Below are positions 18,979 to 33,507 of a stretch of 64,000 nt of DNA, piece after piece (the first letter of the stretch is position 1; every line of letters starts with the position of its first letter). The stretch is from Spirosoma sp. GTDB lineage: Bacteria; Bacteroidota; Bacteroidia; Cytophagales; Spirosomataceae. A program made the position numbers and the translations under genes. The notes under the pieces are model-generated. The model made no database searches, had not been told where the DNA came from, and saw nothing but the letters and a program-made list of their open reading frames with translations. Location: the NCBI RefSeq assembly GCF_026391055.1, contig NZ_JAPLET010000022.1, forward strand, positions 647,648 through 711,647. The letters are read 5' to 3'.

Positions 18979-19018
18979 TTGTAGCTAAAAGGCATCCAAT
19001 ATCCTTTTGGCTACTCAT

Positions 19019-19057
19019 AAAAGAAGAGACCACCTTGTTCGGTTGGTCTCTTCTTTT
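19019..19057. terminator. Bidirectional terminator between convergent genes
   Basis: AAAAGAAGAGACCA-ccttgttcgg-TGGTCTCTTCTTTT hairpin flanked by A and T runs. Confidence 0.75.
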
Positions 19058-19096
19058 ATATAATAAGTGTGTGGATAGACTGCCTATTTGCTAGCG

Positions 19097-19432
19097 TTAG
19101 GAAAGAACATTCATCAAAATGATAGCAAGATGAACGACTGTACTTAGCGCAAAGGCTGGAAATATATTTTTTACGGGCATGGCGGATAAAACCGGAACCA
19201 GTATGGCCAAAAAGCCGAACATGCTAACCAGAAATTGCCAGTCTCCCCCACCAAAATACGCCATCGTTAACAGAAGTACCGGCGATAGAATACAACCCTG
19301 AACAGCCATGGCGGTAATTGCCCAACCAATTCGATTGAATTCGGCTTTTTGCACGTAGCTGTTATAAGTAGTGAGCCAGTTTGATTCGGTTGAACTGGTA
19401 TAGGAAGTTGTTGAATGAGAAATCGTTGCCAT
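19097..19432 (-). CDS. Small membrane protein (hypothetical)
   Basis: About 111 aa counted from MATISHSTTS, with three hydrophobic helices. The longer ORF-track start at 19489 is less plausible. Confidence 0.45.
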   Translation of the reverse strand: MATISHSTTSYTSSTESNWLTTYNSYVQKAEFNRIGWAITAMAVQGCILSPVLLLTMAYFGGGDWQFLVSMFGFLAILVPVLSAMPVKNIFPAFALSTVVHLAIILMNVLS

Positions 19433-19530
19433 GATTAGTTGCGTCTGAATTATGACACAAAGTAAAGCCACGCTCGTCTGGGGCTGCATGAAGCCGATCA
19501 GCTGGCAATTTGATTATCATCAGAAGACGA

Positions 19531-19571
19531 ACTGACAAAAAACGGGGAAGTAGCGGTACCGCTACTTCCCC
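19531..19571 (-). terminator. Rho-independent terminator after acs
   Basis: 28-nt perfect palindrome GGGGAAGTAGCGGTACCGCTACTTCCCC, followed on the minus strand by GTTTTTTGT. Confidence 0.82.
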
Positions 19572-19614
19572 AACTCACTCCTTATGAAAACACAACCAAC
19601 TTTTCTACAGCATA

Positions 19615-21525
19615 CTACACCACGCCTTCTTTGATTTCCTCGACTACAGCAGGGTCGAGTAAAGTCGACGTATCTCCCAAACTCCCAAGTTCACCTTCGG
19701 CTATCTTGCGCAGAATCCGACGCATGATCTTTCCGGAACGCGTTTTCGGCAGACCAGCCACGAACTGAATTTTATCTGGTTTGGCGATGGGACCAATGAT
19801 TCGGCTCACGGTAGCCAGAATATCCCGCTTCATCAGATCGGTGTCATTGTCGACAGGGGCCTGATCAATAATAACATAGGCATAGATTCCCTGCCCTTTA
19901 ATATCATGTGGATACCCGACTACAGCACTTTCAACCACACCCGTGTGCATGTTGATGGCATTTTCGACTTCAGCGGTTCCAATTCGGTGCCCGGACACGT
20001 TCAACACGTCATCCACCCGCCCGGTGATCCGATAATAACCATCCTCATCCCGCAGGCAGCCATCACCGGTAAAATATAATCCCGGATAGGTGGCGAAATA
20101 GGTCTGCTTGCATCGGTCGTGGTCGCCGTAAGTTGTCCGGAGCATACCAGGCCAGGGGAACTTGATACACAGATTACCGCTCACGCCGTTTCCTTCGATC
20201 TCTTTACCGTTTTCATCGACCAAAATGGGTTGAACGCCCGGTAACGGCAGGGTTGCGTAAGCGGGTTTTAACGGTGTGACATTGGCAATGGGTGAAATCA
20301 TCAGGCCACCAGTTTCCGTTTGCCACCAAGTGTCGACAATCGGGCAGCGGTTTTTGCCAATGTTGTCATCATACCAATGCCAGGCCTCTTCATTGATAGG
20401 CTCACCCACGGAGCCGAGTACCTCCAGGCTGCTCAGATCATGGTTCACAACCTTATCCAGCCCAAAGCTCATCAGCGACCGGATGGCGGTGGGTGCCGTG
20501 TAGAGGATGTTAACCGCGTGCTTGTCGACAATGTCCCAGAAACGACCGGCATCAGGCCAGGTGGGGACGCCTTCAAATAACAGTGACGTGGCGCCACAGG
20601 CTAACGGACCATAAACGATGTAGCTATGTCCGGTAATCCAGCCAATGTCGGCTGTGCAGAAATGTACCTGCGGACCCGTCCGACCGTCCTGCTTATACTG
20701 GAATACGTTCTGGAAGGTATAGGCTGCATAAACCATGTATCCACCAATCGTATGCACCACGCCTTTGGGCTTTCCGGTTGAGCCGGAAGTGTACAGGATA
20801 AAGAGAATATCTTCGGCGTCCATCTCTTCGGCCGGGCAATGCGCAGTGACCTGTTTTAGCTCCTGCTCCATCCACACATCGCGGCCCTTAAACATGGCAA
20901 TGGGCGTGCGGGTACGGGTCATAACAATAACCCGCTGCACACTGGGGCAGCCAATCAGGGCATCGTCGACCGTTCCTTTAAGCGTAATTTCCTTGTTTCC
21001 ACGGTAAGCTCCGTCGGCGGTGATCACGAGCTTGCACTGCGCGTCATTGATTCGGTCGGCAATGGACTGGGCCGAGAACCCGCCGAATACAACGGAATGT
21101 ATGGCACCGATTCGGGCACAGGCCAGCACGGATATGGCCAGCTCAGGAACCATAGGAAGGTAGATACACACCCGATCGCCTTTCTGAACGCCGTTGCGCT
21201 TGAGCACATTGGCCATCCGGCATACCTGGTCATGCAGCATTCGGTACGTAAGCGTACTACTGGCTTCGTGCGGGTCGTTGGGTTCCCAGATGATAGCAGG
21301 CTGGTCGCCACGAGTTGCCAGATGACGGTCCAGGCAATTTTCGGTGATATTCAGTTTGCCCCCAACGAACCACTTTATAGTAGGTTCTGTGAAATTCCAC
21401 TGAAGCGTTTTCTTCCACGGTTTACGCCAGTGAAATTCCTGGGCAATTTCGGCCCAGAATGATTCTGGGTCGTCGACACTGTGTTTGTAAGCCGCCTGGT
21501 ACTCGTCAAAAGTTTTAATTACCAT
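19615..21525 (-). CDS. acs: Acetyl-CoA synthetase (AMP-forming)
   Basis: 636-aa ORF. Motifs 'YTSGSTGKPKG', 'WWQTETGG', 'DDVLNVSGHRIGTAEVE'. C-terminal 'PKTRSGKIMRR' contains the regulatory acetyl-lysine position. Confidence 0.97.
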   Translation of the reverse strand: MVIKTFDEYQAAYKHSVDDPESFWAEIAQEFHWRKPWKKTLQWNFTEPTIKWFVGGKLNITENCLDRHLATRGDQPAIIWEPNDPHEASSTLTYRMLHDQVCRMANVLKRNGVQKGDRVCIYLPMVPELAISVLACARIGAIHSVVFGGFSAQSIADRINDAQCKLVITADGAYRGNKEITLKGTVDDALIGCPSVQRVIVMTRTRTPIAMFKGRDVWMEQELKQVTAHCPAEEMDAEDILFILYTSGSTGKPKGVVHTIGGYMVYAAYTFQNVFQYKQDGRTGPQVHFCTADIGWITGHSYIVYGPLACGATSLLFEGVPTWPDAGRFWDIVDKHAVNILYTAPTAIRSLMSFGLDKVVNHDLSSLEVLGSVGEPINEEAWHWYDDNIGKNRCPIVDTWWQTETGGLMISPIANVTPLKPAYATLPLPGVQPILVDENGKEIEGNGVSGNLCIKFPWPGMLRTTYGDHDRCKQTYFATYPGLYFTGDGCLRDEDGYYRITGRVDDVLNVSGHRIGTAEVENAINMHTGVVESAVVGYPHDIKGQGIYAYVIIDQAPVDNDTDLMKRDILATVSRIIGPIAKPDKIQFVAGLPKTRSGKIMRRILRKIAEGELGSLGDTSTLLDPAVVEEIKEGVV

Positions 21526-21575
21526 GGGTAGTGAATGTAGTAGAACGGGGTAAGAAAAGTATAAGGATCTCTTGT

Positions 21576-23492
21576 TTAATCAATTTCGAACGACTGACCG
21601 ATTCTGCGCCTGACCAATGCGTCTTTTATCTCGTCCAGAATCAGTGGATCATCAATAGTAGCCGGGGTTGTGTAGACTTCGCCATCCGCTATGTTCCGGA
21701 TGATCTTCCGGAGAATCTTACCGGACCGGGTCTTCGGTAATCGTTTCACTGTCAGCGCATTTCGAAAACAGGCGACCGCTCCGATCTGATCGCGGATGAG
21801 CGTTACCAATTCCGTTTCAAGGGTTGCCTCCTTGGTTTTATACCCGTCTTTCAGGACAATAAATCCAACGGGGCGCTGTCCCCGCAACGGGCAGACAATG
21901 CCTACCACGGCACATTCGGCAACGGCAGGATGACTGCTCACAATCTCTTCCATTTCACCGGTCGACAAGCGGTGTCCGGCTACGTTTATCACGTCGTCGA
22001 CGCGTCCCATGATAAAGACATAGCCTTCTTCATCAACATAACCGCCATCGCCCGACAGGTAGTAGCCGGGGAACCGGCTCAGGTAGGAAGCCCGGAACCG
22101 CGCATCGTCCTGCCAGAGCGATGGTAGGCAACCGGGCGGAAGGGGTAGTTTAAGGCAAACCAATCCCATTTCATGTGGACCTAGCTGCTGCCCGTCTTCA
22201 TCCAGAATCTGTAAATCATAACCACAAACAGGTTTGGTAGCCGAGCCGGGCTTCACCGGCAGCTGCTCTATTCCCAGCGGATCTGCCACCATAGGCCAGC
22301 CCGATTCGGTTTGCCACCAGTGGTCGATGACGGGCACGTGAACAATAGATTGCAGCCATTGAAGGGTTGGCGGGTCGCACCGCTCCCCAGCCACGAATAC
22401 ACTTTGCAGGGATGACAGATCGTAGTTACGGCTGAGTACGGCCTCAGGATCTTCTTTTTTAATGGCCCGAAATGCAGTGGGCGCGGTGAACAACACATTG
22501 ACCCCGTAGGTCTGCACTACCCGCCAGAATGTACCGGCATCGGGCGTTCGAACGGGTTTTCCTTCCAGAATAACCGATGTACAGCCCTGCAGCAGCGGCC
22601 CATAAACCGAATAGCTATGCCCAACCGCCCAGCCAAAATCAGACGCGGTAAACATCACCTGTCCGGGCTGTAGATTATACACCGCCTGCATACTGTATTT
22701 AATAGCGACGGCATGGCCACCATTGTCGCGCACGATCCCTTTTGGCTTGCCGGTAGTACCGGACGTATACAAAATATAGAGCGGGTCGGTCGCTTTGACG
22801 GGCACACAGTCGGCGGGTTGCGCCTGACTGACCAGCAACTGCCAGTCATGATCCCGGCCTATTTGCAGCTCGGCGGCACATTGCGGGCGCTGCAAAATTA
22901 GGCAATGCTCGGGTTGGAAGCTGGCCCGCTGGAGGGCATCATTCAACAAGGGTTTGTAAGGAATAACTGTCGTAAACTCAATACCACAGGATGCGGACAA
23001 AACAACTTTGGGCCGGGCGTCGTCAATACGCAGCGCCAGTTCGTGGGGTGCGAAACCACCAAACACGACCGAATGAATAGCCCCTAACCGGGCACAGGCC
23101 AGCATGCCAAAGGCCGTTTCGGGAACCATCGGCATGTAAATCACGACTGTATCGCCTTTTGTAACGCCCAATGCCTGCAATACTCCGGCCAGCCGGGCCA
23201 CTTCATCGCGCAATTCTCGGTAAGTAAACTGCCGGATGGTATTCGTAACGGGCGAATCATGAATGAGGGCTACCTGATCGGCCCGGCCATTCTCGATGTG
23301 GTAATCAAGAGCGGCATAACAGGTATTGAGCTGCCCATCCATAAACCAGCGCATCAGGCCATTTTCATCGGTCGATAGGATTTGCGCGGGCGGGGTAAAC
23401 CAGGGGATATTCCTGGCTTGCTCAGCCCAGAACGCTTCCGGATGAGTCAGGCTGTACTGGTGCCAGTCGGTATAGGTAAGGGGTAGATTCAT
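21576..23492 (-). CDS. prpE: Propionyl-CoA synthetase-like short-chain acyl-CoA synthetase
   Basis: 638-aa ORF. 'RIDDARPKVVLSASCGIE...IPYKPLLNDAL', 'YTSGTTGKPKG', 'VPVIDHWWQTESGWP', 'DDVINVAGHRLSTGEMEE' and 'PKTRSGKILRK' closely track E. coli PrpE. Confidence 0.82.
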   Translation of the reverse strand: MNLPLTYTDWHQYSLTHPEAFWAEQARNIPWFTPPAQILSTDENGLMRWFMDGQLNTCYAALDYHIENGRADQVALIHDSPVTNTIRQFTYRELRDEVARLAGVLQALGVTKGDTVVIYMPMVPETAFGMLACARLGAIHSVVFGGFAPHELALRIDDARPKVVLSASCGIEFTTVIPYKPLLNDALQRASFQPEHCLILQRPQCAAELQIGRDHDWQLLVSQAQPADCVPVKATDPLYILYTSGTTGKPKGIVRDNGGHAVAIKYSMQAVYNLQPGQVMFTASDFGWAVGHSYSVYGPLLQGCTSVILEGKPVRTPDAGTFWRVVQTYGVNVLFTAPTAFRAIKKEDPEAVLSRNYDLSSLQSVFVAGERCDPPTLQWLQSIVHVPVIDHWWQTESGWPMVADPLGIEQLPVKPGSATKPVCGYDLQILDEDGQQLGPHEMGLVCLKLPLPPGCLPSLWQDDARFRASYLSRFPGYYLSGDGGYVDEEGYVFIMGRVDDVINVAGHRLSTGEMEEIVSSHPAVAECAVVGIVCPLRGQRPVGFIVLKDGYKTKEATLETELVTLIRDQIGAVACFRNALTVKRLPKTRSGKILRKIIRNIADGEVYTTPATIDDPLILDEIKDALVRRRIGQSFEID

Positions 23493-23556
23493 AGCTGAAA
23501 GCGTCCGTTTGGCGAGGTCGGTAGGGTTTTACAGATTGCCGTTGCCAGCAAACTCA

Positions 23557-23928
23557 TCATATCTTCGGCAGTATGTTCAACTCGTTGACTTTAGCGATCA
23601 GCTCGCGGGTAGAGAATGGTTTGGGGATATACAGGTTAGCACCCAGGTCAAGTCCTTTCTGTATATCCTTCTCCTTACTCTTTGCACTCAGAAAAATCAC
23701 TTTACAATGCTGGTAATCGGGTGATTGCTTAACAAAGCGGCATACTTCGTAGCCATCGACCCGCGCCATCATTACGTCAAGAATCAGTAGATCAGGCACT
23801 TCCTGGCGAATAATATCGAAAGCTTCGTCGCCATCACGGGCAATAAACACGCGGTATCCTTCTTTTTTCATCAGGAATTCCAGGGAGAGCAGAATACTCG
23901 GCTCGTCGTCAACAATCAGCACCTTCAT
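23557..23928 (-). CDS. Single-domain response regulator (receiver only, CheY-like)
   Basis: 123-aa ORF. 'VLIVDDEP', phospho-acceptor context 'LLILDVMM', 'FLSAK', 'IPKPF'. No output domain. Confidence 0.9.
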   Translation of the reverse strand: MKVLIVDDEPSILLSLEFLMKKEGYRVFIARDGDEAFDIIRQEVPDLLILDVMMARVDGYEVCRFVKQSPDYQHCKVIFLSAKSKEKDIQKGLDLGANLYIPKPFSTRELIAKVNELNILPKI

Positions 23929-24012
23929 AATGAGTTGAAATGATTTTGGCTAAAATAAGGAGTAAATGGCCTTTATCTTACCCTAATTTCCCGTTCCCAT
24001 CAAAACCAGTCT

Positions 24013-26733
24013 TTATTCACAGGTAGGCAGCGAACAGGTAAATTCAGCCCCTTCTCCGGGCACACTGTTAACCGTAATTTGCCCATAATGCAACGCAATG
24101 ATCTTTTTTGTAATTGCCAGACCCAGTCCGCTTCCCTTGGGCTTTCGTAGTGTCTGGTTATTTGCCTGATAAAATTTTTCAAAAATGAGTTGCTGTACGT
24201 CCGGCTCAATACCAACACCGTTATCGCGGACGGTCAGGTTAACTCGTTCATCACGGAGCGTCAAACAAACTGTAACATGACCGGTATCAGCCGGTGAGAA
24301 CTTGATAGCGTTGGAAAGCAGATTGATCAGCACCTGCATCAGTCGGTCGCGATCACCATCCACAAAAGGTTGTGCCTGTGTGGGGCAGATCTCCAGCGTT
24401 ACCTGTTTATCACGCGCTAACTGCGCCACATTCTCGACGGCCTCGGCCACTAAATCGACCATCGCAATTCGTTCAGTACTCAAGTGATATCGACCGGAAT
24501 CGTACCGCTCCAAATCAAGTACCTGGTTAATGAGCCGGGAAAGTCTCTCCGTTTCCCGAATAACCCGGCTCAGAAACTCCTGTCTCATGGACTCATCCAT
24601 GTCCGCCTGATCGTGCAGAATTTCCGACAACGCCCGAATCGACGTCAGGGGTGTTCTGATTTCGTGCGTAACGGTCGAGACAAAATCATCCTTCTGCTCA
24701 TCGGACTGTTTAAGCCGTTCGTTGGCCAGACTTAGCTGCTGGGTCATCTGCTGTAACTCGGCCGATTTGCGCGTCAGCTTCTTGTTAACCATCATCAATT
24801 CCTGCGAGGCCTTCAGAATATGAATCACCTCATCCACAGAAAGCGGCTCTTCGTTCGCCACCGACGACACCAGGATACGCGCTGAGGCCGTTCCAATAGC
24901 GCCCGCCAGCCATTTTTCGGCATACGCCACCAACCTTGGATCGGCGTAGGCACTGCCAGCCTCCAGCTGGTTGCGCTGAATATACCGATCAAGCGCCCGC
25001 TGGGTGGCTTCTTTCCCGAAAAAGGTATTCAGTAACGACCGCAAATCAGTGGTTAAGGCCTGCCCATTCCAGGGCGTCGTTTGCTCCGTAGTACGCGAAA
25101 AATGAAATACATCGACGAATAAATTGGCCTGCGACTGGTCGAGTGCCCGCTGTGACCAATTTAGCGACCCCCAGATGTACCCGCCAATGTTGAAAAACAT
25201 CGACCAGAACAACGCGTGTGCTATGGGGTCGAGCCCCGTAAGACCGAGCAATTCGTATGGTTTCAGAAAAGTCAGGCCTAATGGTCCTTCGCTAATAAAG
25301 GTGTCGGGCAGCAGGCCAGCCGTCACCAGCGAGGGAGCGATTAAGGTGTATACCCAAATCAGTGCGCCCATCAGCAGCCCAAGTTTGGCCCCATAGCGGG
25401 AACCCCGTTTCCAGAACAATCCACCAATCATGGCGGGCGTAAACTGGGCCACCGCAACGAATGAGATAACCCCAACCGACACCAGAGAGAAATGGTTGGC
25501 TACATAATGGTAGTACACATAGGCCAGCAACAATAAGCCCACGATGGTTACCCGCCGGATGGTAATTACCAGACCCCTTCGCGAAGGAGTTCCGGACGGT
25601 GGATCAAATCGGGCCAGCCAACCGGGTCGACTTACCAGTAAAGGCATCACCACGTTGTTGCTGATCATGACGCTCAGCGCAATCGTCTCAACGATGATCA
25701 TACTCGTTGCCGCCGAAAAGCCGCCAATATAGCCCAACAGAGCCAGGTTGGTTTGCCCATACTGTAGCGGCAGCGACAATACATAATTGTCGGCGTCGAC
25801 CAGCGGACCAAGCATCAGCTTACCGGCAAACATCAGCGGCAGTACGAACAGGTTTATCAGAAACAGATACAACGGAAAGAGCCACATAGCTTTGTTCAGG
25901 TGCTTTTCATCCACATTTTCGACAACGGCTACCTGAAATTGCCGGGGCAGAAACAGAACGGCCATCATGGATAAACAGGAATACCAGAACCAGTTGGTCG
26001 TGGAGGCCGATGAACTGAACGTAAACAGACGGGCCAGTGAAGGGGCAGCCGCAGCCCGCGTAAAAAGATCGGCTGGTCCGTTGAACAGAAAGAACGTGGC
26101 AAAGACCCCGATTGACAAAAAAGCGATCAGCTTAATCACCGACTCAAACGCAATGGCCGTTACCAATCCTTCGTGCCGCTCAGTAGCTTCCAGCTTCCGC
26201 GTACCAAACAAAATAGTGAATAACGCCAACACCAGACTGATTACCAGCGCCTGAGTACTTAGAAAAGAAGCCGACGTTCCGCTCACTGAATGGCCAGTCA
26301 TCACCGCAAAACTGGTCGTGACAGCTTTCAGCTGAATGGATATGTACGGTACGGCCCCCATTACGCAGAGTACGGTTGCCATTACGCCCAACAGTCGGCT
26401 TTTCCCGTACCGCGACGAGATAAAATCGGCAATACTGGTGATGCGCTGCGTTTTGCAAATCCGGATAATTTTACGCTGGATAGTCCACCACAGGGGTGCA
26501 CCAACCGTTGGGCCGATGTAAGCCGTCAGGTACTCGATACCCTCAGAAGCAGCCCGTCCAACACTCCCGTAAAATGTCCAGGCTGTACAATACACAGAAA
26601 TAGACAACGCATATAGGTACGGATTGTTGACCAAGCTCCTACCCGTTTGCGGGCGGTTTTCGGCCCAGTAGGCTACTCCGAACAACAAACACAGGTACAA
26701 CAAAGAGCAAACGACCAGAGCGAGACTATTCAT
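24013..26733 (-). CDS. Sodium:solute symporter (SLC5/SSS)-domain-fused sensor histidine kinase (CrbS/CbrA-like architecture)
   Basis: 906-aa ORF. About 13 TM helices in the first ~520 aa, then a helical linker and coiled coil. H-box 'STVTHEIRTPLTSI', N-box 'LLSNAIKFSP', 'DNGVGI', 'GSGLGLAI'. Confidence 0.9.
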   Translation of the reverse strand: MNSLALVVCSLLYLCLLFGVAYWAENRPQTGRSLVNNPYLYALSISVYCTAWTFYGSVGRAASEGIEYLTAYIGPTVGAPLWWTIQRKIIRICKTQRITSIADFISSRYGKSRLLGVMATVLCVMGAVPYISIQLKAVTTSFAVMTGHSVSGTSASFLSTQALVISLVLALFTILFGTRKLEATERHEGLVTAIAFESVIKLIAFLSIGVFATFFLFNGPADLFTRAAAAPSLARLFTFSSSASTTNWFWYSCLSMMAVLFLPRQFQVAVVENVDEKHLNKAMWLFPLYLFLINLFVLPLMFAGKLMLGPLVDADNYVLSLPLQYGQTNLALLGYIGGFSAATSMIIVETIALSVMISNNVVMPLLVSRPGWLARFDPPSGTPSRRGLVITIRRVTIVGLLLLAYVYYHYVANHFSLVSVGVISFVAVAQFTPAMIGGLFWKRGSRYGAKLGLLMGALIWVYTLIAPSLVTAGLLPDTFISEGPLGLTFLKPYELLGLTGLDPIAHALFWSMFFNIGGYIWGSLNWSQRALDQSQANLFVDVFHFSRTTEQTTPWNGQALTTDLRSLLNTFFGKEATQRALDRYIQRNQLEAGSAYADPRLVAYAEKWLAGAIGTASARILVSSVANEEPLSVDEVIHILKASQELMMVNKKLTRKSAELQQMTQQLSLANERLKQSDEQKDDFVSTVTHEIRTPLTSIRALSEILHDQADMDESMRQEFLSRVIRETERLSRLINQVLDLERYDSGRYHLSTERIAMVDLVAEAVENVAQLARDKQVTLEICPTQAQPFVDGDRDRLMQVLINLLSNAIKFSPADTGHVTVCLTLRDERVNLTVRDNGVGIEPDVQQLIFEKFYQANNQTLRKPKGSGLGLAITKKIIALHYGQITVNSVPGEGAEFTCSLPTCE

Positions 26734-26938
26734 GGGAAGTCGGCGAATCGTCGGAGTTGCGTGTACGGTGAATTAACCAGCCGATACCTCCAATTAAACT
26801 TGCCCATACAGTAAACACGTATAAATAAAGGACCGGAATACCCAGTACCCGCTCAGGTCGGTTTGCTATTGCGAGAATCGGACTATTCAGCAACAGCATG
26901 AATAACATACTGATTAGTAAAAGTCGACTTTCTTTCAT
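26726..26938 (-). CDS. Two-TM micro-protein resembling the DUF3311-type small partner of SSS transporters
   Basis: 70-aa ORF whose stop overlaps the kinase start by 8 nt. 'ANRPERVLGIPVLYLYVFTVW' resembles the N-R-x-E-P...G-x-P...W core as I recall it for DUF3311. Confidence 0.5.
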   Translation of the reverse strand: MKESRLLLISMLFMLLLNSPILAIANRPERVLGIPVLYLYVFTVWASLIGGIGWLIHRTRNSDDSPTSHE

Positions 26939-26961
26939 GGTATGAAGTACCGGCCAGCCTT

Positions 26962-27180
26962 TTACTCTTCGTCGTAATCGCCAGCGAGTGCGTACCGGCC
27001 AAAGGTGATTAAACCACCAACCACTATAGGCACCAGTACCAGTAAAACCACCCAGCCAAAAACGTTATCTTCCAGTTTTTCGCTGGCAATTTTGACTAAG
27101 CTGTCCAGAATTCGGTCGTAGGCAACGAGTAAGCCCAGTAAAATCCAGACAAAGCCCATGTATTTTTTTATCGCTTTCAT
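26962..27180 (-). CDS. Two-TM micro-protein (hypothetical)
   Basis: 72-aa ORF with two hydrophobic helices and an acidic C-terminus (GDYDEE). It lies between the MFS gene and the sensor-kinase genes. Confidence 0.45.
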   Translation of the reverse strand: MKAIKKYMGFVWILLGLLVAYDRILDSLVKIASEKLEDNVFGWVVLLVLVPIVVGGLITFGRYALAGDYDEE

Positions 27181-27313
27181 ATCTTTTAAGGCTTAGAAGA
27201 AGCCAGCGGCTGCCGGCCTCTGTTTACGTGAGAATTGAGTTAAATTTCATCTGGCAGAAACAGACATCTGCCAGGCCCATTGTTTAATATTTTCCACCTC
27301 TGAAGTCAGGCCA

Positions 27314-28900
27314 TTAGTCGCGCTCGACGGCCTTGGCGCGGTTACTCAGGTAAAGCAGGCCAATCACAAAGGACACACTAGCCACAATAATCGGGTACCA
27401 GAGTCCTTCCAGATAGGCTTTGGAAACAACGGGAGCCGCACCGGCCGCAGCAGCAGTTTCATTCGCCTTCGTAGCGGTGGCCACCAACGCCGTAGCAATA
27501 AAGGGGACCAACCCACCAAAAACACCGTTGCCAATATGATAAGGCAACGACATGGAGGTGTAACGAATCCGGGTTGGAAACAACTCAACCAGAAAGGCGG
27601 CTATCGGGCCATATACCATCGTTACGTACAACACCTGAAGCAGCACCAGAAGAATCATTACCATTAAATCACCCGTCGACATCGTCACCGATTTAACCAC
27701 CTCGGGTTTAGACCTCTCCACTGACGCATCGGCCAGAACGGTCTGTTTCGACACTTCCTTGTAAGCGGTACCATCGGCGAAGGCTTTGGTCGTCGTAGTG
27801 GTAATCAGCGAATCGGCCGTATTCGCTATCAACGCTTTTTTAACGTCTACTTTCGTCTGTTCAGTCAATTCCTGTTTGGCCTTTAAATCCGTCAGGCTGT
27901 ACATCTTCTCGTAAATGGGCCGGTAGGTCAGAATGCCCAGCGCCATACCGGCCAGCATGATGCCTTTCCGACCAATTTTATCCGACAGACCACCAAATAT
28001 TACGAAGAAGGGTGTGGCAATCAGCAGGGCCACCGCCACGACAATATTGGATTGAACAAATTCGACATTACAGGCTTTCTGTATAAACGACAGGGCATAA
28101 AATTGACCTGTATACCAGATAACGCCTTGCCCCATGGTAGCCCCAAACAAGGCCAGTAAGACCATTTTCAGGTTTTCGCGCTTGCCGAAGCTCTCGGCCA
28201 GTGGGTTTTTGGATGTTTTCCCTTCTGATTTCAGCTTGGTAAATACCGGCGACTCCGACATTTTCAGGCGTATATAAATAGACACCCCTACCAATAATGC
28301 CGATAACACAAACGGTATCCGCCAGCCCCATTTGGCAAAATCCTCAACGCCCACCAGTTGTCGGGTAGCAACGATCACCCCCAGCGATACAAACAGACCC
28401 AGCGTTGCCGTTGTCTGTATAAAACTGGTGTAGTATCCCCGGCGGCCTTCGGGAGCATACTCGGCTACGTAAGTGGCCGCCCCCCCGTATTCGCCACCCA
28501 GTGCGAGACCCTGTATCAGGCGAAGCAGAAGCACGAGTAGCGGTGCCCAGAAGCCGATGGTTTCATAACCGGGAATCAGACCAATAAAAAACGTCGATCC
28601 GCCCATCAGCACCAGCGTGACCAGAAATGTATATTTCCGGCCAACCAGGTCGCCTAACCGGCCAAAAACCAGCGCTCCGAACGGACGCACGATGAAACCG
28701 GCAGCAAACGTCGCCAGCGTTGACAGCAGAGCGGCTGTTGGATTATCTTTCGGAAAAAACTGCGTTGACAGAATAGCGGCCAAGCTGCCAAAGATGTAAA
28801 AATCGTACCATTCAATGAGGGTTCCCAGCGAAGAGGCACCAATTACACTCAACAATGTTTTGGTACCGGCTACCGATTTGGGGGTTTGTTCTACTATCAT
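27314..28900 (-). CDS. MFS transporter, metabolite:H+ symporter (MHS) family
   Basis: 528-aa ORF. 'WYDFYIFG', MFS motif A 'GRLGDLVGRKYTF', 'LGGEYGGAATYVAEYAP'. Large central cytoplasmic loop. Confidence 0.9.
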   Translation of the reverse strand: MIVEQTPKSVAGTKTLLSVIGASSLGTLIEWYDFYIFGSLAAILSTQFFPKDNPTAALLSTLATFAAGFIVRPFGALVFGRLGDLVGRKYTFLVTLVLMGGSTFFIGLIPGYETIGFWAPLLVLLLRLIQGLALGGEYGGAATYVAEYAPEGRRGYYTSFIQTTATLGLFVSLGVIVATRQLVGVEDFAKWGWRIPFVLSALLVGVSIYIRLKMSESPVFTKLKSEGKTSKNPLAESFGKRENLKMVLLALFGATMGQGVIWYTGQFYALSFIQKACNVEFVQSNIVVAVALLIATPFFVIFGGLSDKIGRKGIMLAGMALGILTYRPIYEKMYSLTDLKAKQELTEQTKVDVKKALIANTADSLITTTTTKAFADGTAYKEVSKQTVLADASVERSKPEVVKSVTMSTGDLMVMILLVLLQVLYVTMVYGPIAAFLVELFPTRIRYTSMSLPYHIGNGVFGGLVPFIATALVATATKANETAAAAGAAPVVSKAYLEGLWYPIIVASVSFVIGLLYLSNRAKAVERD

Positions 28901-28949
28901 TTTTTATTTAGGTATTGAGGGTTTGGAATTCATATGTAAAATAGAGCTT

Positions 28950-30317
28950 TTAGAAAGAATATACTGTTGTAAGCAGCAAACGAGTGTTTGTTATTTGCTC
29001 AGCAGCAGTAACCCTGGCATCTGTTGACGACGTGCCGTAGCCAGCCGTTGTTAGCTCCAGCTCGGTCCCGATGCGAAACCGGCCCGAAACGACTTCCAGT
29101 CGGGGTGCTATCCGAAACAGGTTATCGATACCACCCCGTCCGCCAATCCCAATGCCGCGTCCGTACGCAGCCACCGCATTGGGATCGTTTCCGGTATTCT
29201 TACTATATCCGACAAAAATGGCCGGAATAATGGTTTTGCCATTGCCCATCAGCTCAGCCCATATTGACGTAATACCCGTTGGCTTATAAGCTGTTTCGAG
29301 GGCGGGCGTAGTGCCTGCCGCAGGTGTACCATAGGCCAGAAAGCCACCCAGCATGACATGATCCGTCATATTCGAGCCTTTGAGCGCTTCGATCTTTAGC
29401 GTAGTAGCTCGTCCAATTACTTTCAAATACGCCATAACAGCCGAACTACCTACAGTAGCCTTGCTAACTAGTAGAGACGTACCACTGCCGGTCGAAAGTC
29501 GTGGCCGAATCACTTTGTAATCGAATGCCAGACCAGCCACCACCCGATCTCTCTTTAATTGTAGCTGGGCATGTAAATTAGGTACCGCCGAATTCCGAAT
29601 ATACTCAGACGAACCTCCGTTTAGGCCAATACTGGTAAAATCACGTTGAGCAATCAAGGCCAAAATAAGGCTGATATCTTTACTTAGATGTTCGGTAAGG
29701 CGAATCTGCGGACTCCGGTTAAACGGCTGAAAAGGAATGCCCGTATTAAAGTTGACCACTCCGGGAAATACCTCGGGCACAAACAATGGGTGCCAGAACT
29801 GCCCGAACGCCAACTGTCGTTTCGGCCAGTCCAGCTTGGCCCAGGCGTGCCGCAGCCGAACACCGCCCACGGCAGCATCTGAGGGGCCAAACCATTCCAT
29901 TTCCAGCAACCCCGAGGTTTTAGCGCCAAACGCATCGGGGCCGGTAAACACCGCACCCAGCCGACTATTGATGGCCAGCATGTTAAAATTTGTGACCGCA
30001 TTCACATCCAAACCATTCACGTCGACTTGCTTATCCCGTGGGTATAAATCCACCGAGGCTTCACGCAGGTTGACCGTTTGGCGGGAATCGAACGAAAAAT
30101 CGTTTCGTACAAAGCCGGTAAATTTCAGGGTGACTGCCGACGTTTCGGCGGGTTTGTTGGTACCGACTGCCTGTCCGGCATTTGAGGGTGGTATGGAGTT
30201 CAGCGTTGTTACGGGCGTAGCGACAGTCGACACCTGAGGAGCCGTCGACTGCGGCCAGGCCGCTCCCGACAAGAGCAGTCCAAGGCTTGCAAGCGTGAAC
30301 GAATAAGACAGTTTCAT
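28950..30317 (-). CDS. Outer-membrane porin-like beta-barrel protein
   Basis: About 455 aa counted from MKLSYSFTLASLGLLLSGAAW. Low-complexity Thr/Pro/Ser N-region followed by amphipathic strands. C-terminal 'LLLTTVYSF'. Confidence 0.62.
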   Translation of the reverse strand: MKLSYSFTLASLGLLLSGAAWPQSTAPQVSTVATPVTTLNSIPPSNAGQAVGTNKPAETSAVTLKFTGFVRNDFSFDSRQTVNLREASVDLYPRDKQVDVNGLDVNAVTNFNMLAINSRLGAVFTGPDAFGAKTSGLLEMEWFGPSDAAVGGVRLRHAWAKLDWPKRQLAFGQFWHPLFVPEVFPGVVNFNTGIPFQPFNRSPQIRLTEHLSKDISLILALIAQRDFTSIGLNGGSSEYIRNSAVPNLHAQLQLKRDRVVAGLAFDYKVIRPRLSTGSGTSLLVSKATVGSSAVMAYLKVIGRATTLKIEALKGSNMTDHVMLGGFLAYGTPAAGTTPALETAYKPTGITSIWAELMGNGKTIIPAIFVGYSKNTGNDPNAVAAYGRGIGIGGRGGIDNLFRIAPRLEVVSGRFRIGTELELTTAGYGTSSTDARVTAAEQITNTRLLLTTVYSF

Positions 30318-30514
30318 GAAGCTTAGGTAGGGTTTTGAGAAGTCATTTGATGCTTCAAAACACCCACATAGCGCGTTAACTGTCAACTGATTGACATAGA
30401 TACGCTAAAATCCTATAGATATCTTTAGTTGGGAAGGAGTTTACTAATCAGAATCTTTTCTCTATTTATGTTTTATAGGCAGTATTTTTTGCTCTATTAT
30501 GCGTAAACGGGCAC

Positions 30515-30934
30515 TTATTCCTTAAAGCGCTCCCACTTGATAAGCATAAATTTGTCACCCAGTTCGGTTACGATCATCCCTGCCCCTTCCGTGTTTTTTC
30601 GATCTGAATAAAAATCTACTAACTCTCTGTGGTTAAGTATTTTATATGTCGGATGATACGTATTATTCTCGGGGATTTTAATCTGGTACTTCTTGACCCA
30701 ATTCATAACGGACACATGGCTGATACCAAGTAATCGTTCGATTTCGCGAAAGCTAACCCCCTCAATATAAAGCTGTAAGGCTTTGATGACGTAGTAAGTG
30801 CTAATCCCTTTACCAACTTTACCAACGGTAAAATTATAGTTACATTTCTTACACCTAAAACGCTGACGCTGATTAACAATACCGTTTCTGACTGCGTCTA
30901 CTGCATTACATTTCGGACATTTTAACGTAGCCAT
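30515..30934 (-). CDS. IS1 InsA-like zinc-ribbon + HTH protein (orphan; no InsB/DDE partner)
   Basis: 139-aa ORF. 'CPKCN...(17 aa)...CKKCN' Zn ribbon, then HTH 'VSFREIERLLGISHVSVMNWVKKY'. Same layout as IS1 InsA. Confidence 0.72.
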   Translation of the reverse strand: MATLKCPKCNAVDAVRNGIVNQRQRFRCKKCNYNFTVGKVGKGISTYYVIKALQLYIEGVSFREIERLLGISHVSVMNWVKKYQIKIPENNTYHPTYKILNHRELVDFYSDRKNTEGAGMIVTELGDKFMLIKWERFKE

Positions 30935-31274
30935 CTTACTCTAAAAATCATCTATATACTATTAGCAAATATATAGCAAATTAGCAGAATGAGTCATTTT
31001 TTTCTAGAAAAAGTTAAATTTAGAAATAGGTTATACTCACACTAAGCGCAAATTGTTGTTTAAGGCCGAAGCTGAATTATGTGTTTGGTTGTACCTACTG
31101 GTTGAAACCCGTATATGACAACAGGCCGAATCACCGGCTAAAGCCCGTGGTGAAAACCAGGCACCCAATTCAGGGAACTCGACCATATAACTTCAGCTTA
31201 TCGACCATAACTACAAGTTGGGTAACAAGCGAACTAATGAAGGGGTTAAATCCATTATACTTGCAAGGAAATCG

Positions 31275-31302
31275 ACGCCGGGGCTTACCGGCGTTTCGTT
31301 TT
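31275..31302 (+). terminator. Terminator-like hairpin in the leader of the sulfite reductase gene
   Basis: ACGCCGG-ggctta-CCGGCGT followed by TTCGTTTT, 43 nt upstream of the ATG at 31345. Confidence 0.45.
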
Positions 31303-31344
31303 AATAGATTAGTTGATTAAATCTATAGACTATATACCTTACCT

Positions 31345-33507
31345 ATGTCTATCCTATTGACCGACAACGTTAGTCCGGCAGCCAGACGCGATATTCTGGA
31401 CCTTGAGCAGAAGATTAGTTCGTTCCGTTCGGGCGAAATAGCCGACGAAGCCTTCCGTAAATTCCGCCTGACACGCGGTGTATACGGTCAGCGGCAACCG
31501 GGTGTGCAGATGATTCGCATCAAACTGCCCCACGGCCGTATCTCAGCCAGCCAGCTTGTGCGTATTGCCGATCTGTCGGATAAATACGCAACTGGCAATC
31601 TCCATGCTACTACCCGGCAGGATATTCAACTGCACTTTGTAAAACTGGCCGATTCTCCTCAACTCTGGGCTGAACTGGAAGATGCCGGTATTACCCTGAA
31701 AGAAGCCTGCGGAAACACCGTTCGTAACGTGACGGGATCGGCCCGCGCCGGTATCGACCCGCTAGAGCCTTTCGATATTACGCCTTACGCCTATTATGTT
31801 TTCGATTATTTCCTGCGTAACCCAATCTGCCAGGATATGGGGCGTAAGTTCAAAATTTCGCTTTCATCGAGCGAGAAAGATTCAGCTTACGGCTACATGC
31901 ACGATGTGGGTCTCATAGCTCGCATTCAGGATGGCAAACGAGGCTTTAAGGTAATGCTGGGTGGCGGCCTTGGCGCACAGCCTTTCTCCGCACAAACGGC
32001 GTTTGAATTTCTGGAAGAAGACCGGATTATTCCGTTCATCGAAGGTGTAATTCGGGTATTTGATCGGTACGGCGAACGCCAGAAGCGTCACAAAGCCCGC
32101 ATGAAATACCTTCTCAATGACATTGGTCTGGAGGAGTTGCTACGCCGAATAGAGGAAGAAACACCTGCCCTGAAAAATAAACTTTTCTCGGTCGATAGTG
32201 CGCCTTTTTCGGTGAGTGAACAGTATGTCGACCGCCCCGAAGTAAGCGGTTATATACTCGAAACCGAGAATCAGAAGCTAAATAACTGGTTCAAAACAAA
32301 CGTTTTCGAGCAGAAACAAGCCGGTTGGTATGCCGTTCAACTACGGGTATTACTGGGCGATATGCACTCCGATACCGCCCGGGCATTGGCGCAGATCGTT
32401 AAACAGTATGCCGCCGACGACATCCGGGTAACGGTTAACCAGGGCTATTTACTGCGGTTTATTCGGCCGGAAAACCTGCCCGCTATGTTCGAAGCGCTCG
32501 ACGCTCTTGGCTTGGCAGAACCCGGTTTCGATACCACGGCCGACATCACAACCTGCCCCGGTACCGATACCTGTAATCTGGCTATTTCAAGCAGCTACGG
32601 TATTACCCGGGCTCTGGAACGGATGATGCACGACGAATTCCCGGATCTGGTGTTTAATGATGATATCAAGATCAAGATTTCGGGCTGCATGAATGGTTGC
32701 GGTCAGCACTCGGTTGCGAACATCGGCTACCACGGCTCTTCGTTAAAAAACGGTGCTTACGTATTGCCTGCTCTGCAAGTGCTGCTGGGTGGTGGTTTTA
32801 ACGGCAAAGGCGAAGGATTGATTGCCGACAAAGTCATAAAAATTCCGGCAAAACGTGGTCCGGAATCGCTACGGTCCCTCCTGCGCGATTTTGAAGCCAA
32901 CGCTTTCGACGGAGAGTATTACAGCGATTATTACGCCCGGCAGGGAAAAAATTACTTTTATCAGTTACTCAAACCCATCGCGGATTTGAAAACGCTGGTA
33001 GATAGCGACTACATCGACTGGGACCATACCGAGCAGTACGTAACGGAAGTGGGTATCGGCGAATGCGCCAGCGTACTCATCGACCTGGTAGCTACAACCC
33101 TGACCGAGGCCAGTGAAAAGCTGGGCTGGGCACAGGAAGCGCTTGCGGAAAACCGGTGGGCCGACGCGCTCTATCATGCTTACAATGTATTCATCACTGG
33201 GGCACGGGCCGCGCTGATGAGCCGCGATATTCCAACCAATACGCAGCACGGTATCGTCAGCGATTTCGATAAAACGTTTGCTGGCGGACCGTCGCACGGA
33301 AATGGAGTGGGTTTCCACGATGCAGAAGGTGACTTCAAATCGCTGGTATTCAGCATTAATAAACAGGAGCCTTCCGAAGAATTTGCCCGTCATTTTATCG
33401 CCCAGGCAGAAACATTCCTACAGGCCGTTCAGGCGTACCGCAATCAGCAGATTGAACAGGAAGGCGCTCCTGAATTGCAGGAATTGACTCAGGCACAGGA
33501 TAGTTAA
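31345..33507 (+). CDS. Sulfite/nitrite reductase hemoprotein (siroheme-[4Fe-4S]) with ~165-aa C-terminal helical extension
   Basis: 720-aa ORF. Cluster-binding Cys motifs 'TTCPGTDTCNLA' and 'SGCMNGCGQH'. Duplicated NiR/SiR ferredoxin-like halves. Confidence 0.9.
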   Translation: MSILLTDNVSPAARRDILDLEQKISSFRSGEIADEAFRKFRLTRGVYGQRQPGVQMIRIKLPHGRISASQLVRIADLSDKYATGNLHATTRQDIQLHFVKLADSPQLWAELEDAGITLKEACGNTVRNVTGSARAGIDPLEPFDITPYAYYVFDYFLRNPICQDMGRKFKISLSSSEKDSAYGYMHDVGLIARIQDGKRGFKVMLGGGLGAQPFSAQTAFEFLEEDRIIPFIEGVIRVFDRYGERQKRHKARMKYLLNDIGLEELLRRIEEETPALKNKLFSVDSAPFSVSEQYVDRPEVSGYILETENQKLNNWFKTNVFEQKQAGWYAVQLRVLLGDMHSDTARALAQIVKQYAADDIRVTVNQGYLLRFIRPENLPAMFEALDALGLAEPGFDTTADITTCPGTDTCNLAISSSYGITRALERMMHDEFPDLVFNDDIKIKISGCMNGCGQHSVANIGYHGSSLKNGAYVLPALQVLLGGGFNGKGEGLIADKVIKIPAKRGPESLRSLLRDFEANAFDGEYYSDYYARQGKNYFYQLLKPIADLKTLVDSDYIDWDHTEQYVTEVGIGECASVLIDLVATTLTEASEKLGWAQEALAENRWADALYHAYNVFITGARAALMSRDIPTNTQHGIVSDFDKTFAGGPSHGNGVGFHDAEGDFKSLVFSINKQEPSEEFARHFIAQAETFLQAVQAYRNQQIEQEGAPELQELTQAQDS

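Follow-up and report, generated by a model that had tools for sequence, protein, structure and literature searches.

Sensor histidine kinases with a transporter-like SLC5 domain are predicted in Bacteroidetes, but studies of them are confined to Proteobacteria (PMC7918813, PMC9100948). In Vibrio and Pseudomonas, the CrbS/CrbR system (MxtR/ErdR) links such a kinase to acs, encoding acetate--CoA ligase, and to an acetate permease with a small membrane partner, the pair in question being actP and a DUF485 protein (PMC5436829, PMC5715377). In P. putida, the small peptide CbrX binds the SLC5 domain of the kinase CbrA at transmembrane helices (TM) 3 and 8, and the cryo-EM structure of the CbrX-CbrA SLC5-STAC domains is available as PDB entry 10ED (PMC13488458). 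At the outer membrane, porins of the DcaP family are needed for carboxylate catabolism (PMC12338516). Here, a locus that brings together counterparts of several of these elements is described from a 64,000-nt stretch of a Spirosoma genome (the window, on contig C22; genome of 7.98 Mb, 99.96% complete). It is a nine-gene operon whose products, judging from its gene content, probably take up acetate and propionate and turn them into CoA esters, and its ninth gene encodes a protein resembling InsA of the insertion sequence IS1, which is the likely transcription factor of the operon.

Acetate and propionate are among the main carbon compounds exchanged in soils, in waters and in guts, and no account of how non-gut Bacteroidota sense and take them up was found in the literature searched. 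The same literature yielded no published description of this locus in Bacteroidota, of DUF6814 or of an InsA-like regulator, in line with the statement of an earlier note on this DNA, made from the letters alone, that the layout is undescribed for the phylum. The locus offers a complete and testable route, from porin, permease and accessory peptide to sensor and ligases, and it poses a well-defined question, namely the target of a receiver that has no output domain.

A conserved nine-gene operon

The locus is a real operon, kept across many Bacteroidota (Table 1). The eight minus-strand genes that the earlier note had read from 30317 to 19615 are all reproduced in the list of open reading frames (ORFs), with exactly the spacers it gave (49, 133, 23, -8, 84, 64 and 50 nts, from the porin gene towards acs) and with 8 nts shared by the 70-aa ORF and the kinase gene. 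The strong terminator that it placed past the array was recovered at 19572-19543 on the minus strand; this is the strongest terminator-like site within 19000-31400, and no comparable site was found inside the array in a scan of the same region. The extent of the array had to be revised, however, since the unit comprises nine genes and the co-oriented gene at 30515-30934 had been overlooked. The identities proposed for the outer-membrane channel, the MHS transporter, the SLC5-domain kinase, the receiver, prpE and acs are upheld by the family, profile and fold matches given below.

Full-length orthologues of the kinase were found in 68 of the 301 sampled genomes of the order Cytophagales, and the 29 orthologous loci that were fetched (9 + 20) span 10 or more of its families. 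In these 29 loci, the genes run InsA-like, porin, transporter, small peptide, kinase, receiver, prpE (where present) and acs, and because this succession recurs in 9 + 20 loci from so many families, the arrangement is not due to chance. The comparison of synteny among relatives, which the earlier note had recommended as a check, hence found the arrangement to be conserved and modular rather than absent. In one family (f18), the order is peptide, kinase, receiver, InsA-like, porin, transporter and acs. In genus g31 (loci L045 and L046), acs and the InsA-like gene are arranged divergently, and the receiver gene, beside the kinase gene, is on the opposite strand.

Two slots of the module are variable, the porin (type A or type B) and the transporter (MHS with DUF6814, or DUF4212 with a sodium/solute symporter, SSS), while acs is the invariant partner, including in minimal pairs made of the InsA-like gene and acs. 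It was found in all 29 orthologous loci, save where the contig ends, and no other catabolic enzyme was linked to the module in the 39 loci examined. In locus L022 (G009:C1:7149500-7166500), from a close relative, prpE, acs and DUF6814 each appear as two tblastn pieces in different frames, which represent either frameshift pseudogenes or assembly errors; this genome is 94% complete with 5% contamination. Just past the terminator of the window, at 19097-19489 on the minus strand, a 130-aa ORF that belongs to no family occupies the same place in two Spirosoma relatives, with 98% and 59% identity.

The InsA-like protein

The protein encoded by the ninth gene matches the Pfam families Zn_ribbon_InsA and helix-turn-helix (HTH), and aligns with positions 1-127 of an IS1 transposase model of 199 positions at 80 bits, under the cut-off of 100. 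Its family has about 2284 members, which carry the annotation IS1 family transposase or transposase-like. This database label is judged to be wrong and the protein to be a domesticated derivative of IS1. The gene is present as a single copy in the 8-Mb genome and its position is fixed across dozens of genera. Among 33 orthologues, which are 52-93% identical to the window copy (mean column identity 69%), the Cys residues are invariant, the HTH is near-invariant and a C-terminal domain is conserved. In the structural model, the HTH is followed by this small beta-alpha-beta-beta domain, and a Foldseek search with the model returned only weak matches, to Lrp/AsnC and NrdR proteins, with E values around 0.03. 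Longer proteins carrying the InsA-like module, for instance fused to a receiver or within a DDE transposase, were searched for and none was found at E<=1e-5, which is weak evidence.

The InsA-like gene travels with the kinase gene: among the 301 genomes, 65 carry both, 3 the kinase only, 12 the InsA-like gene only and 221 neither, although the genomes are related rather than independent and the statistic overstates the support. The three genomes with the kinase only are incomplete assemblies (65-92% complete). In 41 of the 65 genomes with both, the two genes lie within 10 kb of each other. Where the kinase is missing, the InsA-like gene stands directly before acs, before MHS-acs, or before MHS-DUF6814-receiver-prpE-acs. 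The searches were extended to a phylum-level sample of 401 Bacteroidota genomes, making 702 genome searches with a few genomes in both samples. At this level, the InsA-like gene occurs in 21 of 401 genomes, 20 of which also have a receiver orthologue, and in all 16 gene-carrying genomes outside Cytophagales it is separated from the receiver orthologue by about 4-7.5 kb of the same contig.

The InsA-like protein is likely the transcription factor of the operon, because a conserved CTATA-N-TTAGC motif comes after its gene, just upstream of the promoter of the operon. In the window, this candidate operator, TATCTATAGGATTTTAGCGTATCTATG, occupies 30395-30421, directly after the InsA-like gene and 8 nts upstream of a TTGACA box. 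Its unit can be written CTATA-N4-6-TTAGC ... CTAT. Of 39 loci, 18 contain the strict motif within 220 nts after the InsA-like stop codon, where 0.019 would be expected per segment, and clear variants of it are found in most of the remaining loci. In one genome (G030), a tandem copy of the unit precedes the porin gene though the regulator gene lies on another contig. No further copy was found in the 8-Mb genome, which holds this one site, and hence no wider regulon. The position of the candidate operator favours the action of an activator, as far as can be read from the sequence.

The promoter-like pair itself, TTGACA and, about 20 nts downstream, TGTTTTG, was read from the sequence and would correspond to the -33/-7 elements of Bacteroidota; a GTTTTGA box stands at the same place in related loci. 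A scan for promoters of the E. coli type, which is unsuitable for Bacteroidota, gave no more hits than shuffled sequence. The porin was counted from its ATG (455 aa), as the alternative TTG at 30386 would reach into the promoter. In the G+C-rich genome G121 (L036:8830-9350), the gap between the InsA-like gene and acs is made of short tandem repeats (CCGGAGGCCCCTCGGCTGCT and GGATTGCC-like units) and shows no usual operator motif.

Table 1. Features of the operon and its boundaries (positions of the window, listed from the terminator to the ninth gene).
Feature	Position	Strand	Basis
Intrinsic terminator closing the operon	19543..19572	-	13-bp stem, 8 G-C pairs, 4-nt loop, T-run
acs, acetate--CoA ligase, 636 aa	19615..21525	-	TIGR02188 and Pfam
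PrpE-type propionate(/acrylate)--CoA ligase paralogue, 638 aa	21576..23492	-	PrpE models, 5gxd_A
Stand-alone receiver, 123 aa	23557..23928	-	Pfam Response_reg
SLC5-domain sensor histidine kinase, non-hybrid, 906 aa	24013..26733	-	10ed_A match, HisKA, HATPase
CbrX-like 2-TM micro-protein, 70 aa	26726..26938	-	two hydrophobic helices, overlap with kinase start
DUF6814 2-TM micro-protein, 72 aa	26962..27180	-	PF20664
Structured 133-nt spacer, two hairpins, boundary of uptake and sensor modules	27181..27313	-	RNA fold
MHS-type MFS metabolite/H+ symporter, 528 aa	27314..28900	-	TIGR00883, Pfam Sugar_tr and MFS_1
Outer-membrane porin type A, 455 aa, with signal peptide	28950..30317	-	predicted beta-barrel, DcaP fold match
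Promoter-like elements, Bacteroidota type	30356..30386	-	read from sequence
Candidate operator TATCTATAGGATTTTAGCGTATCTATG	30395..30421	-	motif conservation
IS1 InsA-like Zn-ribbon/HTH protein, 139 aa, ninth gene	30515..30934	-	Pfam Zn_ribbon_InsA and HTH

The sensor kinase, its small peptide and the receiver

Residues 6-469 of the kinase match the CbrA SLC5-STAC chain 10ed_A with an E value of 2e-70 (4e-91 with a profile of 15 members), so that its N-terminal domain is homologous to the SLC5 domain of CbrA. The only domains recognized by Pfam in the kinase are HisKA (680-747) and HATPase (793-904), and the protein ends at residue 906. No PAS domain and no C-terminal receiver were found by Pfam; the kinase is non-hybrid and leaves no room for a PAS domain. 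A conserved region of 110 aa at 530-640, probably helical, stands at the position where STAC would be expected. The kinase has more than 8000 homologues, many of which carry PF00474 or are named Na+/proline symporter/histidine kinase.

The 70-aa peptide encoded just upstream consists of two hydrophobic helices, and its gene overlaps the kinase start by 8 nts in the window (ATGAATAG). It is kept in most loci, and it overlaps the ATG of the kinase by 1-8 nts in about 18 of the 29 loci. No Pfam or NCBIfam family was matched by the peptide; in a comparison with Pfam, there were weak, single-member matches to DUF485 and DUF3311. With peptide and kinase laid out as in cbrX-cbrA, the locus adds a second case, from a phylogenetically distant group, in which a CbrX-like peptide accompanies an SLC5 kinase.

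The receiver matches Pfam Response_reg over residues 3-114 and has no output domain. Its acidic pocket is complete, and D7, D8, D51 and K103 are invariant in 26 orthologues. All receiver orthologues from the order- and phylum-level genomes lie in open frames of 117-301 aa. A DUF294/exonuclease protein was considered as the output of the receiver; this is unlikely here, DUF294 not being found in this genome. In genome G287 (L037:5340-5717), the phospho-acceptor Asp of the receiver is replaced (LLINAM versus LLLDVM). This genome has lost the kinase and the small peptide while keeping InsA-like-MHS-DUF6814-receiver-prpE-acs, and the loss of the Asp is compatible with decay of the receiver once the kinase is gone.

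Probable uptake and activation of short-chain carboxylates

The outer-membrane protein matches no Pfam or NCBIfam family. Its AlphaFold (AF2) model is nevertheless a beta-barrel (pLDDT 85, pTM 0.82), and the best fold match among Protein Data Bank (PDB) structures is the porin DcaP (6eus_A, E 2e-15, TM score 0.76), followed by the general and anion-selective porins PorB, OmpT, Omp32 and OmpF. In total, 275 porin chains were matched at E<=0.001. The protein has 1343 relatives. The porin slot of the module is occupied by two families without detectable sequence similarity to each other, neither of which has a Pfam family: type A in five loci (L021, L022, L024, L043 and the window), and type B, which weakly resembles the porin ExtI, in the rest (e.g., L023:12216-13700).

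The transporter is MHS-like by its family matches, with Pfam Sugar_tr and MFS_1 above their cut-offs and ProP, KgtP-like proteins, ShiA and TcuC as its next matches. The two-helix DUF6814 protein (PF20664, E 5e-24; single copy in the genome) follows the MHS gene in MHS-type loci and is a probable accessory subunit of the MFS transporter. In sister lineages, the place of MHS and DUF6814 is taken by DUF4212 and SSS proteins (TIGR03647/TIGR03648); among named proteins, this pair is closest to the monocarboxylate transporter MctC and to ActP, an acetate permease. This exchange of transporters, together with the invariant presence of acs, supports acetate or another monocarboxylate as cargo and constitutes the best available argument for it.

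The 133-nt spacer, which lies between the MHS gene and DUF6814 at the boundary of the uptake and sensor modules, folds with -40.3 kcal/mol (z -2.15) into two G+C-rich hairpins without a clean T-run. From this predicted fold, it may act as an attenuator or as a processing site, by which the proportion of uptake to sensor transcripts would be set.

Of the two ligases, acs is assigned with 950.5 bits to TIGR02188, above the equivalog cut-off of 724.95, and shows the Pfam domains ACAS_N, AMP-binding and AMP-binding_C. The second ligase is a paralogue with 39% identity to acs and occurs in about 11 of the 29 loci. Its best solved relative is 5gxd_A (813 bits, E 1e-243, over the whole length). In the GSVGEP/VAGER motif, alignment places an Ala in the second ligase where acs has a Val, which is presumably compatible with a slightly larger acyl pocket. 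Entry 5GXD is taken by us to be the PrpE of Dinoroseobacter shibae, an identity that the literature searched did not confirm. The PrpE of D. shibae is a propionate-CoA ligase that also ligates acrylate (PMC5651017).

Six-frame family searches of the 99.96%-complete genome found neither isocitrate lyase nor malate synthase, and since the glyoxylate-shunt genes are missing, acetate is unlikely to serve as sole carbon source by that route. For the same reason, the growth test on acetate put forward in the earlier note is compromised. Acetate is probably a co-substrate, as suggested by this gene content, and would serve for energy and lipid synthesis. Methylmalonyl-CoA mutase is present, and no methylcitrate synthase was found above the cut-off in the genome. 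Propionate can enter through methylmalonyl-CoA mutase and be anaplerotic.

Proposed function and alternative explanations

The gene identities and the conserved synteny support the reading of the earlier note, an envelope-to-CoA system for scavenging short-chain carboxylates, in which the substrate is deduced from the gene content. In the proposed mechanism, a DcaP-like porin of 16-18 strands would let the acids pass the outer membrane, and the MHS-type proton symporter with its two-helix DUF6814 partner would carry them across the inner membrane. In the cytoplasm, the PrpE-type and Acs ligases would trap them as propionyl- and acetyl-CoA, acetate always being a substrate and propionate being added where the second ligase is present. 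Sensing would fall to the CbrA/CrbS-type kinase, using its transporter-like SLC5 domain as the sensor, with the co-translated CbrX-like hairpin peptide bound to it; the kinase would phosphorylate the bare receiver. A single promoter in front of the porin gene would drive the operon, under the control of the InsA-like protein bound to the CTATA-N-TTAGC element, which lies just upstream of the -33 box. As a whole, the proposal of a chromosomally fixed nine-gene module for scavenging short-chain monocarboxylates, sensed by the kinase and controlled by the InsA-like protein, is considered reasonably probable. Its firm part consists of the identities of the genes, the folds, the synteny, the co-occurrence and the conservation of the motif, while the substrate, binding of DNA by the InsA-like protein, its action as an activator instead of a repressor and a connection between it and the phosphorylated receiver are putative.

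A further step concerns the link between the two regulatory branches. The receiver and the InsA-like protein could together form a split response regulator, in which the phosphorylated receiver would dock on the C-terminal alpha/beta domain of the InsA-like protein and turn it into an activator at CTATA-N-TTAGC. This idea is tentative and held with low confidence; a complex prediction for the two proteins returned a score of 0.01, which is evidence neither way. If true, the split regulator would represent a previously unknown class of two-component output, which would have arisen when a DNA-binding module of IS1 was domesticated and would be widespread in the class Bacteroidia.

Several observations weigh against parts of this proposal. 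In genus g7, the InsA-like gene and the kinase co-occur in 7 of 7 genomes with the InsA-like gene unlinked and away from the operon, and the 12 genomes that carry it without the kinase indicate that kinase and receiver are not required. InsA of IS1 itself is a repressor, and activation here is a guess from the position of the operator. On the side of the sensor, a profile of the kinase linker (525-665) matched no solved STAC domain at E<=10, be it the STAC region of 10ED or other STAC chains, and a profile of eight small-peptide orthologues matched neither CbrX nor any other PDB chain at the same threshold. Regarding uptake and activation, the transporter matches TIGR00883 (TC 2.A.1.6) with 367 bits in two stretches and falls short of the cut-off of 443, and the top families of the second ligase are the PrpE models TIGR02316 and NF007815, at 733 and 749 bits, under both equivalog cut-offs (827 and 955).

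The main rival to the proposed function is direct control of enzymes: the two-component pair would not be transcriptional, the phosphorylated receiver would bind and switch the adjacent ligases or the transporter, and the InsA-like protein would regulate alone. It draws on the position of the receiver gene, directly before prpE or acs in about 24 of the 29 loci, and on the 12 kinase-less genomes that keep the InsA-like protein, which might sense a metabolite through its C-terminal domain given its beta-alpha-beta-beta topology and the weak likeness to Lrp/AsnC and NrdR. However, no fusion of receiver and ligase was found in the 301 order-level and 401 phylum-level genomes, and kinase and receiver without the InsA-like gene occur only in the three incomplete assemblies; direct control is regarded as rather unlikely. 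A quite different reading would keep the operon and change its cargo to some other small anion or carboxylate, for example pyruvate, lactate or dicarboxylates, with acs and prpE as mere neighbours and the kinase as a CbrA-like sensor of general carbon status. SLC5 kinases are indeed not tied to acetate, since CbrA senses or transports histidine and RpuS/R controls a pyruvate symporter (PMC9100948, PMC13488458), the nearest named MHS relatives carry proline/betaine, alpha-ketoglutarate, shikimate or tricarballylate, and DcaP prefers di- and tri-carboxylates (PMC12338516). This change of cargo is very improbable in view of the constancy of acs, down to the minimal pairs with the InsA-like gene, of the closeness of the alternative transporter to MctC and ActP, and of the lack of any other linked catabolic enzyme in 39 loci.

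The least credible alternative, to which almost no weight is given, is that the InsA-like gene is a decayed IS1 remnant, lying upstream by chance and without a role in the operon. The annotation of its family as IS1 or transposase-like and the match to the first 127 positions of the transposase model would fit such a remnant, whereas its single copy, its conservation across families with invariant Cys and HTH residues and an extra domain, its fixed position in dozens of genera with co-occurrence of the module, and the lack of longer, DDE-bearing relatives in our searches do not. A domesticated InsA-like regulator, if correctly read, would clearly exemplify how the DNA-binding domain of a transposase is recruited to metabolic regulation, and would bear on more than 2000 database proteins of the family that are labelled IS1 transposases or left generic.

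Comparison with known systems

InsA of IS1 and the InsA-like protein share a CxxC...CxxC zinc ribbon followed by an HTH, in what is for the latter a predicted small DNA-binding protein. They differ in that the protein described here is encoded by a single-copy gene without an InsB/DDE partner, carries an additional conserved alpha/beta domain of 45 aa and occupies, in many genera, a fixed chromosomal site from which it heads a metabolic operon.

The small two-helix peptide resembles the one of the P. putida CbrX-CbrA pair in its size (about 60-70 aa) and in its position just upstream of the kinase gene and overlapping its start, while the SLC5 domains of the two kinases are homologous (E 2e-70, PDB 10ED, PMC13488458). 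At the sequence level, no similarity between the peptide and CbrX was detected. CbrA, for its part, has STAC and PAS domains, signals to the NtrC-type regulator CbrB and has histidine as its ligand.

The porin model finds its best structural match in DcaP of Acinetobacter baumannii (PDB 6EUS, PMC12338516). Both are encoded alongside a catabolic locus, and DcaP is, as the porin here would be, a porin of carboxylic acids that is linked to its substrate. The two proteins share only 15% sequence identity, and the likely cargo here would be monocarboxylates. In addition, the N-terminal segment of the Spirosoma porin is disordered and rich in Pro and Thr, whereas that of DcaP is a coiled coil.

The operon also resembles E. 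coli acs-yjcH-actP, where one transcription unit joins the ligase to a monocarboxylate permease and to a small membrane protein with two TM helices. In E. coli, this unit is regulated by CRP, FNR and IHF. The permease differs, being of the MFS (MHS) type with DUF6814 instead of SSS with DUF485, and the porin, the sensor kinase, the receiver and the dedicated regulator are additions of the Spirosoma locus.

The likeness to CrbS/CrbR drawn in the earlier note holds in part. An SLC5 kinase is linked to acs and to a permease with a small membrane partner in both cases, and a specific operator, here a candidate one, lies just upstream of the promoter. In contrast, CrbS is a hybrid kinase with a PAS domain and a C-terminal receiver, whereas the kinase of this locus has neither PAS nor fused receiver. 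CrbR is a LuxR-type DNA-binding regulator; its place is taken here by a 123-aa receiver without output, stand-alone in all orthologues, and the candidate DNA-binding protein is a transposase-derived Zn-ribbon/HTH protein. Furthermore, everything in the present system, including the porin, is encoded in one operon with acs. By analogy, the module can be seen as a CrbS/CrbR acetate switch combined with an operon of the acs-yjcH-actP type, lacking the architecture that defines CrbS/CrbR. The locus is hence a real and ordinary-looking, previously undescribed variant of a CrbS/CrbR-like system, with one interesting candidate mechanism.

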